From contig JBFXEQ010000006.1 of assembly GCA_050179935.1 (NCBI GenBank), forward strand, positions 19,863 to 83,862: a DNA stretch of 64,000 nt. The letters run 5' to 3'. The translations under genes were made by a program, and so were the position numbers. The stretch is from Bacteroidales bacterium. GTDB taxonomy: Bacteria > Bacteroidota > Bacteroidia > Bacteroidales > UBA12077. Below are positions 46,121-53,042 of this stretch, one piece after another (the first letter of the stretch is position 1; each line of letters begins with the position of its first letter). The notes below the pieces were generated by a model, which saw only the letters and a program-made list of their open reading frames with translations, was not told the origin of the DNA and did not search any database.

Positions 46121-47032
46121 ATGTTTAATAAAAAAACACTAAACATCTACGCCTTTATTGTAGGCGCCTTATTTATTATCTCGGGTGTAGGTAAGGTTAT
46201 CGACACCGCTTCATTTAGCCAGCTAATTACACAATATGGGTTGGGTGTATTTAAAATGCTGTCGCCAATTATAATCTTAGCCGAGATTTTGTTAGGTTTG
46301 TTTCTGATTTTTACTATTTATCCAAAACAGAGCTCATTCATTTCATTTCTAATGCTAATTGTTTTTACCATAGCTTTTGCTTATGCATATTTTGCTAAGG
46401 GAATAACAAACTGTGGATGTTTTGGTACCTTAAAACACACCTCAATGCCTCCTGCCATTTCTTTTATTCGCAACTTTATATTGATTTTTTTAACGTTAAT
46501 AATTTGGATAAAATACCCAAAAGAAAAAACAGAAACCGAAGACTGGAAGAACTATTTTATTTTGGGTGTTATGTGCGTTGCTATTTTTGTTTCAGGATAT
46601 ACTTTTAGGATACCTGTTTTTACAAAACCCAGCCAGATCAACGAACGCTACTTAAACAAACCGGTGAAAGAAACAGATTTATCAAAATTTGTAAGCACGT
46701 CGAAAGATAGTTCTTATTTGGTTTTTATATTTTCGTATACCTGTCCGCATTGTGTCAATTCGATCGAAAATTTACTTGCCTACAAAAAATCAAACACTGT
46801 TGATCAGATATTAGGTCTTGCAACTGGTTCTGAAGAAGATAAAATTGCATTTTACCAGAACTTTACGCTTGATTTTCCTGTAAAAGAAATTTCGTCTAAA
46901 ACTGTAAAATCGATGGTTAATGGCGTACCTGCAGCTTTCTTTATAAAAAACGACACTATATATAATGTAATTCCTGGCTCACTACCCTCTCATGTTTTAT
47001 TTAAAAAACATATAAAAAGAAATGAACTGTAA
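46121..47032 (+). CDS. MauE/DoxX-like membrane domain fused to a thioredoxin-fold domain (CPHC)
   Basis: 303 aa. About 5 TM helices carry the CGCFG motif (GITNCGCFGTL) characteristic of MauE/DoxX redox-associated membrane proteins. A Trx fold follows (LVFIFSYTCPHCVNS, cis-Pro loop GVPAAFFI). Confidence 0.7.
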   Translation: MFNKKTLNIYAFIVGALFIISGVGKVIDTASFSQLITQYGLGVFKMLSPIIILAEILLGLFLIFTIYPKQSSFISFLMLIVFTIAFAYAYFAKGITNCGCFGTLKHTSMPPAISFIRNFILIFLTLIIWIKYPKEKTETEDWKNYFILGVMCVAIFVSGYTFRIPVFTKPSQINERYLNKPVKETDLSKFVSTSKDSSYLVFIFSYTCPHCVNSIENLLAYKKSNTVDQILGLATGSEEDKIAFYQNFTLDFPVKEISSKTVKSMVNGVPAAFFIKNDTIYNVIPGSLPSHVLFKKHIKRNEL

Positions 47033-47081
47033 TACTTAAAACAGTTAAAATGAAAAAAACATTTTTACCAAAGTTGTTCCA

Positions 47082-47315
47082 TTGGGTATTGGATTAACAC
47101 TTACCATTATAACATTAATGGCTGTTTTATCTACTTCGGTTGGTAGTTGCAACATTGAGCATTGCACTGATCCCGATTATCCTTTATATTGTTCTTCTGC
47201 AGACAAATGTTGTCCTGGTGATCATCCTTATACTGATGGACATGGAAGCTGCTACGAAACTTTAGATGGATGCAGAACATCCGGATATTCATGTGAACAT
47301 TGCTGGGAAGAATAA
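47082..47315 (+). CDS. small secreted/lipidated cysteine-rich protein (9 Cys, 4 His)
   Basis: 77 aa from a TTG start. The hydrophobic signal ends in the lipobox-like VGSC. The mature ~55 aa contain 8 further Cys (CNIEHC...YC...CC...SC...GC...SCEHC). A strong terminator follows directly. An ATG at 47050 would join in frame after a 1-nt indel. Confidence 0.55.
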   Translation: MGIGLTLTIITLMAVLSTSVGSCNIEHCTDPDYPLYCSSADKCCPGDHPYTDGHGSCYETLDGCRTSGYSCEHCWEE

Positions 47316-47350: not shown

Positions 47351-48340
47351 TTAAAAATGTTTAAACCCTATTATTTCTCTCACATCCTTTACTGTTTTTG
47401 ATGCACTCATTCTTGCTTTCTCTGCTCCCATCCTGGCTACCTTTCTTAAATATTCGTCATTTGATGAAATTTCTATAATTCGTTCTCGTATCGGACTCGT
47501 AAAATTAATAATATCTTCGGCTAGCTGCTTTTTAAGATCACCATAACGAATTTCACAGTTATTATATTTTTCCAGAAAAAATGTATAGGTATCAGGTTTT
47601 GAAACTACTTTAAGAATGGAAAATATATTCTTTATTGGTTCTGCCATCTCTTGATTTTTGGCTGTTGGACCACTATCGGTTACAGCTCTCATAACCTTTT
47701 TCTGAATTTCTTTTGGATCATCAAACAAAAAAATCCCATTACCTTCGGATTTACCCATCTTACCTGTTCCATCTAAACCTGGAATCTTAATTAGCTGTTC
47801 GCCAAAATTATACGCACTTGGTTCGTTAAAGTAATTTACGCCATACAGTTGATTAAATCGACGAGCAAACTTACGAGTCATTTCCAAATGCTGCTCCTGA
47901 TCTTTTCCTACCGGAACTTTATGTGCATTATGCAAAAGAATATCTGAAGCCATTAAAACAGCATAGGTTAGCAAACCAGCATTTATGTTTTCTGATTGCT
48001 GACGGGCTTTTTCTTTAAATGTTGTTGTACGCTCAAGCTCTCCAAGATATGCATTCATATTCATCAGCAAATACAACTCAGCAACCTCGGGCACATCGCT
48101 CTGAATATATATTGTTGCAGCCTCAGGATCGAGCCCTGCAGCAAGATACTCTGACAAAACTTGTCGTACATTACCCTGCAGATCAGCTGGTTTTGGATGT
48201 GTTGTTAACGAATGGTAATCGGCTATAAAAAAGAAACAATTATTTTCGTGTTGCATCTTTACAAAGTTTTGTAATGCCCCAAAATAATTGCCCAAATGTA
48301 AATTACCAGTTGGCCTGATTCCACTTAATACCGTTTCCAT
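47351..48340 (-). CDS. trpS: tryptophan--tRNA ligase
   Basis: 329 aa. Class I motifs are present: HIGH-like (TGNLHLGNY) and KMSKS-like (KMGKSEGN). Confidence 0.93.
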   Translation of the reverse strand: METVLSGIRPTGNLHLGNYFGALQNFVKMQHENNCFFFIADYHSLTTHPKPADLQGNVRQVLSEYLAAGLDPEAATIYIQSDVPEVAELYLLMNMNAYLGELERTTTFKEKARQQSENINAGLLTYAVLMASDILLHNAHKVPVGKDQEQHLEMTRKFARRFNQLYGVNYFNEPSAYNFGEQLIKIPGLDGTGKMGKSEGNGIFLFDDPKEIQKKVMRAVTDSGPTAKNQEMAEPIKNIFSILKVVSKPDTYTFFLEKYNNCEIRYGDLKKQLAEDIINFTSPIRERIIEISSNDEYLRKVARMGAEKARMSASKTVKDVREIIGFKHF

Positions 48341-48361
48341 ATCTTGATATTTGTAAAGCTA

Positions 48362-48369
48362 CAAAAGTA
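48362..48369 (-). promoter_or_regulatory. candidate -7 box (TACTTTTG on minus strand) for trpS
   Basis: Matches TAnnTTTG, 22 nt upstream of the trpS ATG. Confidence 0.3.
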
Positions 48370-48473
48370 AAAAATGTTAAGTAAAAATGGTTATTTATCA
48401 ATTTTATTTACCGGGATTTTAACTTAACACAACATAATATGAGTAAAAACTCTTTAAATATAAAATGAAATTA

Positions 48474-48481
48474 TAATTTTG
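48474..48481 (+). promoter_or_regulatory. candidate -7 box (TAATTTTG) for the 48503 gene
   Basis: Matches TAnnTTTG, 22 nt upstream of the ATG. Confidence 0.3.
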
Positions 48482-48502
48482 CATCAGTAAACTTTACTCG
48501 CT

Positions 48503-48742
48503 ATGGGCTTTTTAAAATTTTTATTGATCTTTTTTACGGTTACCTATATTTTAGGAATAATTGGACGATTGATAATACGCCGTTTTTTAAAAAAAACGCA
48601 ACATCAATTCGAGCAGCAACAAGCGCATCAGAGAAATCAGTATAAAAATGAAGGAGATGTTACTATCCAGAACAAGAGTAATTCTGAAAAAATAATCGAT
48701 CAATCAGAAGGTGAATATATTGATTATGAGGAGATAAAATAA
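48503..48742 (+). CDS. small membrane protein (DUF4834-like)
   Basis: 79 aa with an N-terminal TM helix, a Gln-rich middle and a C-terminal GEYIDYEEIK motif, as I recall for the Bacteroidota DUF4834 family. A terminator follows. Confidence 0.55.
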   Translation: MGFLKFLLIFFTVTYILGIIGRLIIRRFLKKTQHQFEQQQAHQRNQYKNEGDVTIQNKSNSEKIIDQSEGEYIDYEEIK

Positions 48743-48772
48743 AAAACCGCTTTTAAATGAGCGGTTTTTTAT
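48743..48772. terminator. bidirectional intrinsic terminator (DUF4834-like gene / sulfur operon)
   Basis: Stem AAAACCGC / GCGGTTTT flanked by A- and T-runs. Confidence 0.7.
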
Positions 48773-48788
48773 CTTTTGTTTAGACCCA

Positions 48789-49301
48789 TTAGGTAAATAT
48801 AATTTGTGATCCTTCGCCACCGGCCATATTATAAAAATCACCAATGGTAATAATATCGATAACATGATCAATTAAATCTTCTTTTTTAAGCTTAAACATA
48901 TCAGTTGCTAATTTGCAGGCATAAATTTCGCCTCCACCAGCCGTAATCATATCAAAAAATTCATCTACTCGGGGAATATCTAGTTTTTCCATCTGACTTT
49001 TCATCATAGCAGAAACTCCTGCCTCAACTCCTGGTAATAATCCAAGTACAGTTGGAAATGGAAGTCCTCCAGGCATACGCATCGCAGGATTACCTACTGT
49101 GCTGGTTTTTAATTTCATCATATACTTTTTTGTAATAGCATCGAGTCCAAAAAAAGTAAAGAATAACTTAGTTTCCATTCCCTCCATTACAGCTCCATTG
49201 GCCATTACTAAAGCAGCATATACATCTTCGATTGTACCTTTTGCACAAATTATTGCTACTTTCTTTACTTTGGTATCTTTTTTTTCTGTCATATCGTTCA
49301 A
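48789..49301 (-). CDS. DsrE/DsrF-like family sulfur-relay protein
   Basis: 170 aa. VAIICAKGTIEDVYAALVMANGA...LFFTFFGLD resembles DsrE-fold (COG2210-type) proteins. Last gene of a 4-gene operon. Confidence 0.6.
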   Translation of the reverse strand: MNDMTEKKDTKVKKVAIICAKGTIEDVYAALVMANGAVMEGMETKLFFTFFGLDAITKKYMMKLKTSTVGNPAMRMPGGLPFPTVLGLLPGVEAGVSAMMKSQMEKLDIPRVDEFFDMITAGGGEIYACKLATDMFKLKKEDLIDHVIDIITIGDFYNMAGGEGSQIIFT

Positions 49302-49309
49302 TTTTTTAG

Positions 49310-49612
49310 TTATACACAGCTAGTGGGTTTTTTAATACCTGCGATTTTTGAAGCCAGTTTTAAGGGTCCTCCAGGGAATAATGTATAAAACCCTTTTATA
49401 TCTACTATTCCTGATCCGCCAACTTTACGAATAGTAAGCCCTGACTCGTTCTGACGAATAAATTTTAGAACTTCAAAATGCTTATCGGTAAGCTCAATAT
49501 TTTCTTCTTTAGCTAATTCCTTTGCAATTTCTTCGTTCCATTTTGAGGAATCAACAAGATAACCATCTTCGGTAACCTCTAGTGTAACTCCTGCATACGT
49601 TTTTTGTGCCAT
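49310..49612 (-). CDS. TusE/DsrC-family sulfur carrier (single C-terminal Cys)
   Basis: 100 aa. It aligns by eye with E. coli TusE (EDGYL..SS.W, LFPGGP.K.ASKIAG..KP..C[VI]). It ends KKPTSCV. The second DsrC cysteine position is Ser. Confidence 0.8.
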   Translation of the reverse strand: MAQKTYAGVTLEVTEDGYLVDSSKWNEEIAKELAKEENIELTDKHFEVLKFIRQNESGLTIRKVGGSGIVDIKGFYTLFPGGPLKLASKIAGIKKPTSCV

Positions 49613-49626
49613 AGTTTTAAAATTTA

Positions 49627-50205
49627 TTAATGAATACTTTTATTTATTTTAGATTGAACTGAAATATTTTTTAGAAGTGTCAGCATAAAACCAATACTTT
49701 GTTTCACCTCAGGACTATTAATTTCTTTCATTATTTTCCAAAATGAATATTGCTTAGGTTGTTCTGAGCTTGTTTTATGATATGCAACAACAGCATTATC
49801 AAACAGTTGGGCCATTTCTTTAATAAATTCGAAATAACCTTTTTGCTCAAATTCGTGCAGTTTATTGGCAAATTCGATGCCTGCATCAGTAATCATGGGA
49901 CCAACATCTTTTGCAAGGTCGTTCATACTCTCTAGCAGATCGATCATTTGAGAAATATTGTTAATATTTCTTATAAACTTAAAAGCAAGAGATTTTATAT
50001 CATCTACATTAAGCTCAATCCCCTGTTTATCTAGTTCTTCAATAATACTTGTAAAGGCGTCTTTACCAATGATCGAAAGATCGCCAACTAAATCTTCGAT
50101 GGCTTCGCTTTTAAGCCTTTGATCATTTACATAATGCAGCAACAGATCCAGCTTTTGGTTAATCTGATTTATTTGTTCCTGCATATTATCTGTTTTTGCT
50201 TCCAT
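49627..50205 (-). CDS. DUF1641-like protein
   Basis: 192 aa from the ATG at 50205; the track's upstream start would overlap the preceding gene. Helical protein. This family is commonly paired with FAD-dependent disulfide oxidoreductases. Confidence 0.5.
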   Translation of the reverse strand: MEAKTDNMQEQINQINQKLDLLLHYVNDQRLKSEAIEDLVGDLSIIGKDAFTSIIEELDKQGIELNVDDIKSLAFKFIRNINNISQMIDLLESMNDLAKDVGPMITDAGIEFANKLHEFEQKGYFEFIKEMAQLFDNAVVAYHKTSSEQPKQYSFWKIMKEINSPEVKQSIGFMLTLLKNISVQSKINKSIH

Positions 50206-50224
50206 TTTTCGACTCTTTAAATAA

Positions 50225-51454
50225 TTACTTTTTCTTTCCTGCCATCGACATTTCTGATTCAACAGGAAGTTCTTTCCCTTTAAGCAGAATATGCCAGTAA
50301 ATCCATCGAAAAATTACTTTTCCATAATGATTCATTTTTGTATTCTGCAATAAGCCGAAAGGTCCAATGCCGGGTAAAGGATAATTACCAGCCAATGGTT
50401 CTGTTTCGTAATTAAAGTCGATAATAGATCCTTTTCCAAATCCTGTTTCGATATAACAATTCGCATGTCCATCAAAATGAGCTCTCATTTGGCGGCCTTT
50501 AATTAAACACATCAGGTTTTTAAACACTACCTCAGAAGCAAAATGAACTACCGATCCAGCTTTAGATGTTGGAATATTTGAGGCATCACCTAACACAAAA
50601 ACATTTTCATATTTTTCTGATCGTAATGTATTTTTATCCGTTGGAACATAATTTAAATCATCTCCCATACCACTTCGCTGAATCAGATCGTCTCCTTTAT
50701 TTACAGGAACAATGGTTAATACATCAAAAGGAATTTCTTTGCCATCGTATGATTTAATTACTTTCGCTTTATTATCAACACTTTCTAAATAGAAATCAGG
50801 AACTACGGTAATGTTTTTTTCTTTTAAAAGTTCACCAAGCATTTTTGTAGCTCTGGGTTTTGTAAATGCACCCGGAAGTGGTGTAACATAAGTAATATCA
50901 ACTTTATCTCGAATACCTGCTTTGGTAAAATATTCATCGGCCAAAAAAACAAACTCGAGTGGTGCAACCGGGCATTTAAAAGGCAACTCAGCAATATTCA
51001 TAACTAATCGACCTCCTTGCCATGTTTCAAAAAAATCTTTTAGAGCCACAGCACCTTCGATGGTATAAAAGTCAAAAATTTCTTTGTACCATAATTCGTC
51101 CTTTAAGCCTGGTGTTTCTTCAGGGCTGGTCCTGGTACCAGTGGAAATAATTAAAAAATCGTAATTCAATTTTTGGCCTCCTTCTAACAAAACCTGGTTA
51201 TTTTCTGGCTCAATTCGATCAATACCATTAAAAATAAGTTTTACTCCCGAAGGAATAAAATCGGCCTTTGATTTAATTACATCCTGCTCCTTATAAATAC
51301 CAAATGGTATAAATAAAAATCCTGGTTGATAGTAATGTGTTTTATTTTTATCAACGATTGTTATTTCCCATTCATCGCGACTAAGCTCTTTCCTAAGTTT
51401 ATTAGCCATTATTGTCCCGCCTGTTCCGGCGCCTAAAATCACTATCTTTTTCAT
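50225..51454 (-). CDS. sulfide:quinone oxidoreductase-like FAD-dependent pyridine nucleotide-disulfide oxidoreductase
   Basis: 409 aa. N-terminal Rossmann motif KIVILGAGTGGT. SQR-type Cys loop FKCPVAPLEF. Second dinucleotide-binding region (VFVLGDA). Confidence 0.7.
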   Translation of the reverse strand: MKKIVILGAGTGGTIMANKLRKELSRDEWEITIVDKNKTHYYQPGFLFIPFGIYKEQDVIKSKADFIPSGVKLIFNGIDRIEPENNQVLLEGGQKLNYDFLIISTGTRTSPEETPGLKDELWYKEIFDFYTIEGAVALKDFFETWQGGRLVMNIAELPFKCPVAPLEFVFLADEYFTKAGIRDKVDITYVTPLPGAFTKPRATKMLGELLKEKNITVVPDFYLESVDNKAKVIKSYDGKEIPFDVLTIVPVNKGDDLIQRSGMGDDLNYVPTDKNTLRSEKYENVFVLGDASNIPTSKAGSVVHFASEVVFKNLMCLIKGRQMRAHFDGHANCYIETGFGKGSIIDFNYETEPLAGNYPLPGIGPFGLLQNTKMNHYGKVIFRWIYWHILLKGKELPVESEMSMAGKKK

Positions 51455-51489
51455 TTTTGATATATTTTATAGTATTTTTATATTGTTTA

Positions 51490-51507
51490 CTGTTACAAAA
51501 ATAACAG
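51490..51507. promoter_or_regulatory. palindrome CTGTTA-N6-TAACAG enclosing a candidate -7 box (TATTTTTG, minus strand) of the sulfur operon
   Basis: The -7 match (51496-51503) lies 42 nt upstream of the ATG at 51454. The 6-bp inverted arms flank it. Confidence 0.3.
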
Positions 51508-51537
51508 ATATACATATATTAATATTATTATATATCA

Positions 51538-51565
51538 TGATATATATCAGTTATGATATATATCA
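51538..51565. promoter_or_regulatory. two tandem Crp/Fnr-type boxes TGATATATATCA
   Basis: Identical 12-bp palindromes at 51538-51549 and 51554-51565 (TGAT-N4-ATCA core of TTGAT-N4-ATCAA), 16 bp apart. They lie between the sulfur operon and the divergent crp/fnr gene. Confidence 0.5.
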
Positions 51566-51588
51566 TTTACTGAAACATTTTGTTACTT

Positions 51589-52284
51589 ATGGAATTATCT
51601 GTAAAAGTTACTAATTGTAAAGATTGCATTTATCGGTCATGGGCATTTAAAAACCTTTCTGCTGATGATCTGCGATTAATTAATGATAGAAAGAATGAGC
51701 GATTTTATCGCAAAGGAGAAAAAATCTGCACGGAGAATGAACCCATTTCATCCTTTATGTACCTTCAAAATGGATTGGTTAAGCTTTACAAGACCGAAAC
51801 TAACGATCGTGAACATATTATAAGTATAGCCCGACCAAAAGATTTTATCGGATTATTAAGTATTTTTTCTAATAAAACACAGGTTTATTCAATAACAGCA
51901 ATAGAAGATTCGGTGGTGTGTTTTGTAGATTTGGAGATAATAAAAAATCTGATCAAAACAAATGGTGTTTTTGCAATAGATTTTTTTGAGAAAATTAGTG
52001 CAATTGCAGATTCTGTAATAAAAACCCGAATTGATATTAACACCCGTCAATTAAGAGGACGAATAGCTTATATTTTATTATTATTCGCAGAACAAATTTA
52101 TACCTCTCAAAGATTTAGCCTCCCTATAAGCAGAAAAGAAATTGCCGAGCTTATAGATATGAGTACAGAAAATGTAATTAGGGTTTTATCAGAATTTAGA
52201 AAAGACAAAATAATCCAGATCGAAGGAAAAGATATAGAGATACTTGATTTAAAAAGGCTGGAAAAAATTTATGAATTAGGTTAA
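51589..52284 (+). CDS. Crp/Fnr-family transcriptional regulator
   Basis: 231 aa from the ATG at 51589. cNMP-binding-like beta-roll and a C-terminal HTH (SRKEIAELIDMSTENVIRVLSEFRKDKII). N-terminal CKDC pair. Confidence 0.85.
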   Translation: MELSVKVTNCKDCIYRSWAFKNLSADDLRLINDRKNERFYRKGEKICTENEPISSFMYLQNGLVKLYKTETNDREHIISIARPKDFIGLLSIFSNKTQVYSITAIEDSVVCFVDLEIIKNLIKTNGVFAIDFFEKISAIADSVIKTRIDINTRQLRGRIAYILLLFAEQIYTSQRFSLPISRKEIAELIDMSTENVIRVLSEFRKDKIIQIEGKDIEILDLKRLEKIYELG

Positions 52285-53042
52285 CGTTGGTTTTTTAGAT
52301 CTTTTATTTTCTGCGAGAGTTTAGATGCAAAAATAAAATTATTTAGCTCCTTGTTATCAGTATCAAATATTTCCTCTTTAGTTCCTTCCCACCAGATAGA
52401 TCCATTTGAAATAAAGATAACTTTATCACCAATTTCCATAACCGAATTCATATCGTGAGTGTTTACTATTGTTGTCATATTATACTCAATGGTAATCTCC
52501 TTTATCAGGTTATCTATTACTAGTGCTGTTTTAGGATCCAAGCCTGAGTTAGGCTCATCGCAAAATAAATATTTCGGATTTAAAGCAATAGCGCGGGCAA
52601 TAGCAACTCTTTTTTTCATACCTCCACTTATTTCTGCCGGAAACAACTTATTTGAATTAATAATATTTACCCGCTTTAAACATTCGTTGGCACGGTCTCT
52701 CTTTTCGGCATAACTCATATCTGTAAACATGTCTAACGGAAACATCACATTTTCTTCGACAGTCGATGAATCGAACAATGCGCTGCCCTGGAACAACATG
52801 CCTATTTCTTGCCGCATCATCTTTTTTTCTTTAAAGCTAAGATGATTAAAAACTGTTCCATCAAAAATAACCTCTCCTTCGTCAATATCATGCAATCCTA
52901 CGATCGACTTTAGCAATACAGTTTTACCCGATCCACTCTGACCAATAATTAAATTAGCCTTGCCTTTATCAAAAACTACATTTATATCGTTTAAAACTCT
53001 TGAATGATCAAATGATTTGGATAAGTTTCTAACTTCTATCAT
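52281..53042 (-). CDS. mlaF: ABC transporter ATP-binding protein (MlaF-like)
   Basis: 253 aa. Walker A GQSGSGKT, signature ISGGMKKR, Walker B LFCDEPNSGLD. Overlaps the upstream permease gene by 4 nt. Confidence 0.8.
   Translation of the reverse strand: MIEVRNLSKSFDHSRVLNDINVVFDKGKANLIIGQSGSGKTVLLKSIVGLHDIDEGEVIFDGTVFNHLSFKEKKMMRQEIGMLFQGSALFDSSTVEENVMFPLDMFTDMSYAEKRDRANECLKRVNIINSNKLFPAEISGGMKKRVAIARAIALNPKYLFCDEPNSGLDPKTALVIDNLIKEITIEYNMTTIVNTHDMNSVMEIGDKVIFISNGSIWWEGTKEEIFDTDNKELNNFIFASKLSQKIKDLKNQR

Follow-up and report, generated by a model that had tools for sequence, protein, structure and literature searches.

Where would a sulfide:quinone reductase (SQR) of type III, a member of what has been called the least understood SQR class, send the electrons and the sulfur that it draws from sulfide? 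The question is raised by a four-gene operon at positions 48789-51454 of a 64,000-nucleotide stretch of DNA from a Bacteroidales bacterium (GenBank assembly GCA_050179935.1, contig JBFXEQ010000006.1, positions 19,863 to 83,862 of the forward strand; this whole stretch is called the window below). The operon encodes a type III SQR followed by a DUF1641 protein, a TusE-like protein and a DsrE2-like protein, and we hypothesize that the locus is a cytoplasm-facing sulfide-oxidizing unit from which both products are passed on. The evidence comes from family assignments, residue conservation, a swap between selenocysteine (Sec) and Cys, synteny and gene fusions, all of them obtained by computation. 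The four genes are:

50225-51454, minus strand: type III SQR, Cys form (gene 1), 409 amino acids
49627-50205, minus strand: DUF1641 partner (gene 2), 192 amino acids from ATG
49310-49612, minus strand: TusE-type protein of the DsrC/TusE family (gene 3), 100 amino acids
48789-49301, minus strand: DsrE2/DsrE4-like DrsE_2 protein (gene 4), 170 amino acids from TTG

The list of open reading frames (ORFs) and the sequence itself both support four real, co-directional minus-strand genes with intergenic gaps of 19, 14 and 8 nucleotides. The last gap becomes 17 nucleotides if gene 4 starts at the ATG at 49292, the start favoured by the orthologue alignment, and the 167-residue protein read from this ATG is probably the true product. 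For gene 2 (DUF1641), the mechanical ORF list runs further, to a TTG at 50262. An earlier note on this DNA had described the closely spaced genes and a bidirectional terminator, together with the motifs GAGTGG and FKCPVAPLE in gene 1 and KKPTSCV in gene 3; all are present where it had placed them.

Gene 1 very probably acts as an SQR. It scores 659.6 bits against the NCBIfam model for type III SQR (NF049943; cutoff 525) across model positions 1-406, and has more than 8000 homologues (best E = 1e-274). Its best solved relative is the human type II enzyme SQOR (E 1e-49, residues 3-393 aligned), with which it has both catalytic Cys residues in common: C161 (FKCPVAP) and C333 (HANCYIE) align with the pair that is numbered Cys201 and Cys379 in the human protein and Cys159 and Cys339 in the type III enzyme of cable bacteria (PMC13047784). 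Each of the two is present in 82/82 SQR orthologues; C316 is variable. The Rossmann motif for flavin adenine dinucleotide (FAD), GAGTGG, begins at residue 8. No signal peptide or transmembrane segment is predicted, and the C-terminus, with the tail MSMAGK, carries an amphipathic helix (KVIFRWIYWHILLKG) that aligns with the membrane helix of SQOR.

Pfam alone returns a generic Pyr_redox_2 domain for this protein, and many of its NCBI homologues are named ‘NAD(P)/FAD-dependent oxidoreductase’, so a flavoprotein with no sulfur role, a type II NADH dehydrogenase (NDH-2) or a dehydrogenase of the CoA-disulfide-reductase (CoADR) type sitting beside unrelated small proteins, has to be considered. We find this hardly credible. 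Gene 1 falls far short of the cutoffs of the NDH-2 and CoADR models, NDH-2 structures match it at about 4e-13 at best and across the N-terminal FAD fold only, both SQR Cys residues are invariant, and in some genomes the enzyme is fused to TusE. The NADH site also appears to be absent: the second GxGxx[GA] match in gene 1 is GIGPFG at residue 362, in a conserved C-terminal loop and not at about 150-170, where NDH-2 carries its motif. We accordingly rejected both identities for gene 1. The SQR-like assignment of the earlier note withstands these comparisons, given a model score above cutoff, a full-length alignment with SQOR and no grouping with NADH dehydrogenases. The check on orthologues that it had called for gave full conservation of both catalytic Cys (82/82 each), one of them being replaced by Sec in a sister clade. 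Separately, one family representative (P0248) joins a type III SQR to two C-terminal CBS domains, which suggests that ligand-regulated variants of the enzyme exist.

The four genes belong together well beyond this genome. A diverse alignment of SQRs, used to scan a single genome from each species, gave 80 loci at 57-85% identity, which were then examined by ORF calling and profile searches. The order SQR-DUF1641-TusE-DsrE2 occurs in about 58 of them, which bears out the synteny that the earlier note had proposed checking, and the cassette is found in at least nine phyla (Bacteroidota, Ignavibacteriota, Verrucomicrobiota, Chloroflexota, Actinomycetota, Acidobacteriota, Calditrichota, KSB1 and Marinimicrobia). 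About 15 of the 80 loci have SQR-TusE-DsrE2 without DUF1641; wherever a locus extends far enough downstream, both TusE and DsrE2 are found after the SQR. Persulfide dioxygenase, rhodanese, TusA and sulfite exporter genes were sought beside the cassette, and none was conserved across phyla; the other neighbours are lineage-specific (a divergent Crp/Fnr regulator in Bacteroidales, MerR or ArsR elsewhere, occasional YeeE halves and Psr-like genes). Because nothing beyond the cassette genes is conserved across phyla, we regard them as a mobile, self-contained cassette.

Individual lineages have their own additions. Upstream of the cassette, five or six loci have a pair of half-size YeeE/YedE ‘Sulf_transp’ genes (for example, L020:401-1547 and L023 of Flavobacteriaceae), and MerR (9 loci) and ArsR (3 loci) regulators take the place of Crp/Fnr in other lineages. 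At one Acidobacteriota locus (L064:7236-8084), which has no separate DUF1641 gene, the TusE ORF is 282 amino acids long with its DsrC domain at 184-282 only; it is either over-extended or a fusion of TusE to a divergent N-terminal domain.

A sister clade of SQRs bears on which residue gives up the sulfur. The family representative P0255 ends exactly one residue short of the C333 position, and a metagenome scan with it returned 80 loci (L084-L163) in which this position is encoded by TGA in 55 and by TGC/TGT in 18 (for example, L084:5991-5993). Past the TGA, about 85 further residues are in frame and can be aligned with the C-terminus of the SQR. The first Cys (KCP) is present in 77/77 sequences. 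The TGA agrees with the HxxU motif that is listed for the selenoprotein subtype of NF049943 (PMC13188914). Codon 333 of the window SQR is TGT, which makes it the Cys form and places it outside the strict selenoprotein subtype, although the two have the NF049943 family and the SQR-DUF1641 gene pair in common. This Sec/Cys swap argues that C333 is the reactive residue, in redox chemistry and as sulfur donor, and in human SQOR it is the persulfide on the corresponding Cys379 that the sulfur acceptor attacks (PMC11039317).

The Sec-type clade, about 48% identical to the Cys-type clade, also separates the partners of the enzyme. Its DUF1641 gene follows the SQR in essentially all loci with enough DNA, often with overlapping stop and start codons, whereas neither TusE nor DsrE2, both of which are present in the window, was found in the Sec-type loci examined. 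The cassette in the window can thus be taken apart into two associations, one that joins the SQR to DUF1641 and one that joins it to TusE and DsrE2. Some Sec-clade loci have genes for NrfD-type membrane proteins after the SQR or for sigma-54-type response regulators before it.

The second association points to where the sulfur might go. Gene 3 belongs to the DsrC/TusE family by PF04358 (7.9e-25, 87.8 bits, cutoff 24.9) and by TIGR03342 (TusE/DsrC/DsvC; 78.3 bits, cutoff 53.5). It ends in KKPTSCV, and its sole Cys, C99 (CysA), is the penultimate residue of the C-terminal arm. Ser occupies the position of the second Cys of A. vinosum DsrC (1yx3); among orthologues, CysA is present in 76/76, and the CysB column holds Ala in 37, Ser in 31 and Thr in 8 sequences and never Cys. 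The protein is therefore not DsrC in the strict sense, in which a second Cys lies about 10 residues before CysA, and without CysB neither the trisulfide nor the disulfide of DsrC is possible. The description in the earlier note, a TusE-like protein with one Cys and Ser at the second site, agrees with the family models and with these columns.

Gene 4 has the DsrE fold that had been noticed in its sequence, with a match to PF13686 (DrsE_2) at 1.6e-28 (100.1 bits, cutoff 25). Its C129 (YACK) is invariant in the alignment (71/71) and corresponds to the Cys of 2qs7, the closest solved structure, which is the trimeric DsrE2B of Saccharolobus (PMC11094781). C19 is found in only 45/75, unlike in DsrE2A, where two Cys are strictly conserved. 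The location of gene 4 downstream of an SQR is that of DsrE4, a group that is defined by such context.

Gene fusions tie the carrier to the enzyme. In the family representatives P0245 and P0274, the SQR carries at its C-terminus a DsrC/TusE domain whose last residues are PKPRGCV or PKPVGCI, and SQR::TusE fusions occur in Corynebacterium lactis, C. hansenii and Propionibacteriaceae. In C. hansenii, a DrsE_2 gene directly follows the fusion gene, and in Tessaracoccus, SQR, DsrC and DrsE_2 are separate genes. As Rosetta-stone evidence, these fusions argue that TusE works directly on the SQR. As in the DsrEFH-DsrC and TusBCD-TusE systems, a DsrE-fold protein with one active Cys is encoded with a protein of the DsrC/TusE fold whose flexible arm bears the penultimate Cys; unlike in those systems, there is no DsrAB or MnmA end point and a single DrsE_2 gene replaces the trio. 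We consider it likely, from these sequence relationships, that the TusE-like and DsrE2-like proteins are the protein acceptors of SQR sulfur. The acceptors used by human SQOR at the Cys379 persulfide are glutathione, sulfite and coenzyme A; the acceptor proposed here is a protein thiol, C99 of TusE. A further group of SQRs, from Propionibacteriales (P0404, P0430 and P0444; L083:6001-7482), carries a Pro/Ala-rich C-terminal tail of about 85 amino acids with the conserved end ...PDPIIPKF, in an operon that has DsrC and DrsE_2 but lacks DUF1641; this tail may stand in for the missing partner or serve as another anchor.

In E. coli, TusE and TusD-type proteins are biosynthetic sulfur carriers, and the main purpose of the cassette could by that token be biosynthesis, as opposed to detoxification or energy gain: sulfide would supply persulfide on TusE and DsrE2 for tRNA thiolation or for the synthesis of molybdenum cofactor, thiamin or Fe-S clusters, and cysteine desulfurase would be bypassed in sulfidic habitats. 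The lack of a conserved persulfide dioxygenase, rhodanese or sulfite exporter beside the cassette is in keeping with this, as are the housekeeping neighbours in the window. We nevertheless judge it unlikely, the bypass included. Gene 3 reaches 58.6 bits against the 191 of the TusE equivalog model, tusBCD and mnmA are unlinked (no tusBCD-like genes were present in any locus examined), the closest studied operon answers sulfide stress and yields elemental sulfur, and some loci include YeeE-type sulfur transport halves or Psr-like genes.

The direction of the reaction can be weighed on general grounds. Menaquinol, at about -74 mV, is a poor reductant for S0/HS- at about -270 mV, and a monotopic flavoprotein cannot draw on the proton-motive force to drive the reaction. 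A reversed enzyme, in which menaquinol would reduce polysulfide or the persulfide of DsrE2/TusE and release H2S, for sulfur respiration or the clearing of persulfide in anaerobes, is on this basis very unlikely; all characterized SQRs, those of type III included, oxidize sulfide, and we largely rejected the sulfur-reducing direction. What speaks for it is that the host is an anaerobe-type Bacteroidales metagenome-assembled genome (MAG), that a few loci adjoin Psr/NrfD-type genes, and that in the sulfur-reducing archaeon Ignicoccus hospitalis an adjacent pair of DUF1641 protein and FAD oxidoreductase is abundant and co-upregulated, an observation that its authors did not interpret (PMC3149612). 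The earlier note had coupled sulfide oxidation, or reduction, to a protein relay: synteny, fusions and Cys conservation support the oxidation-relay half of this proposal, and the reduction half is thermodynamically unlikely with menaquinone.

The first association, with DUF1641, points to a route for the electrons. Gene 2 encodes an all-helical protein of 192 amino acids with no Cys, which matches PF07849 at residues 148-181 (32.3 bits, cutoff 21, E 9.3e-8) and has a 100% identical copy in a Bacteroidales MAG (P0121). PF07849 is also matched in the SQR partners of other phyla and of the Sec clade, and the gene next after the SQR, in the same orientation, codes for a DUF1641 protein in about 58 loci from genomes and about 65 from metagenomes, in two SQR clades. 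Profiles of the SQR-linked proteins match ForE1/YjgD (PDB 8rqz) at 7.5e-5; with a broader alignment, the match improves to 1.3e-6 and spans about 120 positions (profile positions 105-224 against chain residues 34-159). Among these SQR-linked proteins, some are about 190 and others about 227 amino acids long, the difference being a 38-residue insert just ahead of the DUF1641 domain; the window has the short form.

According to the earlier note, DUF1641 had no assigned role. This is out of date, as the superfamily is now linked to enzyme scaffolding, membrane attachment and quinone transport (PMC13524794). HucM of the Huc hydrogenase, ForE of ForCE and Ncp/YjlC of Bacillus subtilis Ndh form tubes that dock on the membrane and bring menaquinone to the enzyme (PMC13524794), so that the DUF1641 protein is a hydrophobic quinone path in Huc, ForCE and Ndh-Ncp, all the complexes solved so far. 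In each, as here, the gene beside that of a peripheral quinone-reducing enzyme codes for a small helical protein whose C-terminal domain is DUF1641. Ndh is, moreover, a flavoprotein of the two-dinucleotide-binding-domain superfamily to which SQR belongs, and NDH-2 structures are among the weaker matches to gene 1. The present case differs in that the enzyme is an SQR with a membrane helix of its own, that it occurs mostly in Gram-negative phyla and that it is known from sequence. Ndh-Ncp has been reported only in Bacillota (PMC13524794), and the partner there is an NDH-2 of Bacillota clade C1, in contrast to the SQR of a Bacteroidales MAG considered here. On balance, we favour gene 2 as a putative quinone conduit for the SQR.

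The partner could instead assist assembly, stabilize or regulate the SQR, for example through its oligomeric state or its recruitment to the membrane, with quinone taken directly from the bilayer and the sulfur relay unchanged. The SQR retains its membrane-anchoring C-terminal amphipathic helix, DUF1641 has been lost repeatedly with the rest of the operon unaltered, and no confident structural model was obtained, all of which suits such a role. We rate it as rather unlikely, considering that the DUF1641 protein is a quinone path in every solved complex, that the alignment with ForE1 covers about 120 positions and so reaches beyond the 39-residue domain, and that the partner is once again a quinone reductase.

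Expression of the operon may be under local control. The features that surround it are:

51580-52284, plus strand: divergent Crp/Fnr-family regulator (PF00027 and PF13545)
51538-51549 and 51554-51565, unstranded: two palindromes, TGATATATATCA, each an FNR/CRP-type TGAT-N4-ATCA box
48739-48772, both strands: bidirectional intrinsic terminator, a 14-bp stem-loop with an A-run before and a T-run after
48503-48742, plus strand: convergent DUF4834 gene, sharing the terminator 48739-48772

The regulator, whose true start is likely the ATG at 51589, scores below the cutoffs of all NCBIfam FNR, FnrL and CRP models. A divergent Crp/Fnr copy is present in 21-23 Bacteroidales loci, and Cys13, Cys16 and Cys114 are invariant in 21/21 orthologues. 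These align with Cys20, Cys23 and Cys122 of E. coli FNR, and the position of FNR Cys29 is absent, so that three of the four cluster Cys positions are kept. Both copies of the palindrome are perfect. Measured from the SQR ATG, their centres are about 90 and about 106 nucleotides upstream, and they closely precede the regulator gene. The same TGATATATATCA box is found at another locus of the scan (L001), and a TGAT-N4-ATCA box in 17/21 orthologous Bacteroidales intergenic regions. The regulator is a possible sensor of O2 through an Fe-S cluster or of persulfide through its thiols.

From homology, conservation, gene order and fusions, we infer the following biochemical steps, along with the oligomeric states, which way sulfur moves between TusE and DsrE2 and what the regulator senses. 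The type III SQR would oxidize HS- at the C161/C333 redox centre and reduce FAD, and the persulfide on C333 would be the sulfur-donor site, by analogy with human SQOR. Menaquinone would receive the electrons: like its homologues ForE, HucM and Ncp, the DUF1641 protein would form an oligomeric helical tube that docks on the membrane and offers the SQR a lipid-like channel to the quinone pool. The sulfane sulfur would not be freed as polysulfide; it would be taken by the TusE-like C99 on its flexible C-terminal arm and then move to or from Cys129 of a trimeric DsrE2-like protein, in a pairing like those of DsrEFH-DsrC and TusBCD-TusE. In Bacteroidales, the FNR-like regulator would control the operon from the divergent promoter through the TGAT-N4-ATCA boxes. 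The entire chain of SQR, quinone conduit, TusE/DsrE2 relay and regulation is one that we lean towards with some reserve.

Several observations weigh against it. For the enzyme, membranes with the type III SQR of C. tepidum had no detectable activity (PMC4584964). For the conduit, the profiles of SQR-linked DUF1641 proteins detected neither Ncp (9pxk) nor HucM when compared with the PDB; an AlphaFold2 model of the DUF1641 monomer, built from a 36-sequence alignment, was all-helical and, at a pLDDT of 41, uninformative; and DUF1641 has been lost at no fewer than six (at least six) separate positions on a neighbour-joining tree of the SQRs. Given its loss from several lineages, and the amphipathic helix that the SQR retains for itself, DUF1641 would be an accessory and dispensable, with the SQR possibly attaching to the membrane by itself. 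Loss of the C-terminal membrane helix, as reported for Ndh, was sought in DUF1641-linked SQRs, and the helix was kept with or without DUF1641. SQRs with and without a DUF1641 partner are best told apart by columns that lie mostly within residues 342-399 (E395 to K among them), a distribution that fits a C-terminal interface and is confounded by phylogeny. For the relay, gene 3 falls short of the TusE equivalog NF008562 by the score given above, gene 4 reaches 105.7 bits against the DsrE2 equivalog NF047629 (cutoff 210), and DsrE2B of Metallosphaera cuprina, the nearest studied relative of gene 4, bound no sulfur compound tested in vitro. The literature yielded no experiment on any member of the SQR-DUF1641-TusE-DsrE2 cassette.

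Operons that combine an SQR with TusA and DsrE2 or DsrE4 are already known, and the view of the earlier note that the module is poorly characterized applies to the exact cassette, on which we found no work, but not to these relatives (PMC10205796, PMC4175335). In Methylacidiphilum fumariolicum SolV, a sulfide-induced operon (MFUM_v2_0219-0221) encodes a type III SQR, TusA and DsrE2 (PMC10205796). As in the window, a cytoplasmic type III SQR is followed by a small Cys-bearing sulfur carrier and a DsrE2-type protein; it differs in that the carrier is TusA and not TusE/DsrC, that there is no DUF1641 gene and that the host is an aerobic acidophile. The M. cuprina cluster Mcup_1722-1724 encodes TusA, an SQR and DsrE4, the name given to the DsrE group encoded downstream of SQR (PMC4175335), and a role in the handling of reactive sulfur has been proposed for it (PMC4175335, PMC11094781). 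A DsrE-family gene lies directly downstream of the SQR in both cases, which is the context that likens gene 4 to DsrE4, whereas the M. cuprina cluster is archaeal, has TusA in place of TusE and lacks DUF1641.

What is new here is that the sulfur carrier is of the TusE type and can be fused to the SQR, that DUF1641 is a partner, that the cassette extends so widely across phyla, and that a Sec clade with DUF1641 only is split from a Cys clade with DUF1641 and relay. Neither the SQR-DUF1641 pair nor the combination of SQR, quinone tube and sulfur carrier was described in the literature that we searched. We tentatively suggest that type III SQRs, the Sec form included, might constitute a fourth class of enzymes with a DUF1641 quinone tube beside Huc, ForCE and Ndh-Ncp, with a TusE-then-DsrE2 acceptor as well in the clade of the window. 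DUF1641 proteins have been recognized as quinone-carrying scaffolds from 2023 onwards, with a hydrogenase, a formate dehydrogenase and NDH-2 as the known partners; an SQR partner in at least nine phyla and in a selenoprotein clade would broaden the principle considerably, and quinone conduits would not be peculiar to Gram-positive bacteria or actinobacteria. Electrons and sulfur from sulfide oxidation would both be channelled through proteins and not released, and the long-missing acceptor of type III SQRs would have a name, the TusE/DsrE2 pair being a concrete and testable candidate. Cultured carriers (Lutimonas halocynthiae CECT 8444, Opitutaceae MBA3-11, Corynebacterium hansenii and Tessaracoccus) make experiments feasible. 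The cassette is compact and moves between phyla, and it bears on how anaerobic Bacteroidales of sulfidic habitats cope with sulfide.

The terminator scan gave 48739-48772 on the plus strand only, and the minus-strand reading was taken from the sequence itself: because an A-run and a T-run flank the stem-loop, it can end transcription in either direction. In 48300-52400, an Rfam scan returned no match above threshold. A promoter scan scored no better than shuffled sequence. The window flanks encode SprA, GldM and GldN, and the neighbours of the cassette are housekeeping genes only. Within 46121-47315 on the plus strand, a MauE/DoxX membrane domain (PF07291) is joined to a C-terminal thioredoxin-like part with a CPHC motif. 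Directly after this fusion, a 77-amino-acid ORF (47082-47315) has a hydrophobic N-terminus, 12 Cys and no Pfam match, and could be a disulfide-rich secreted peptide with an oxidoreductase of its own.

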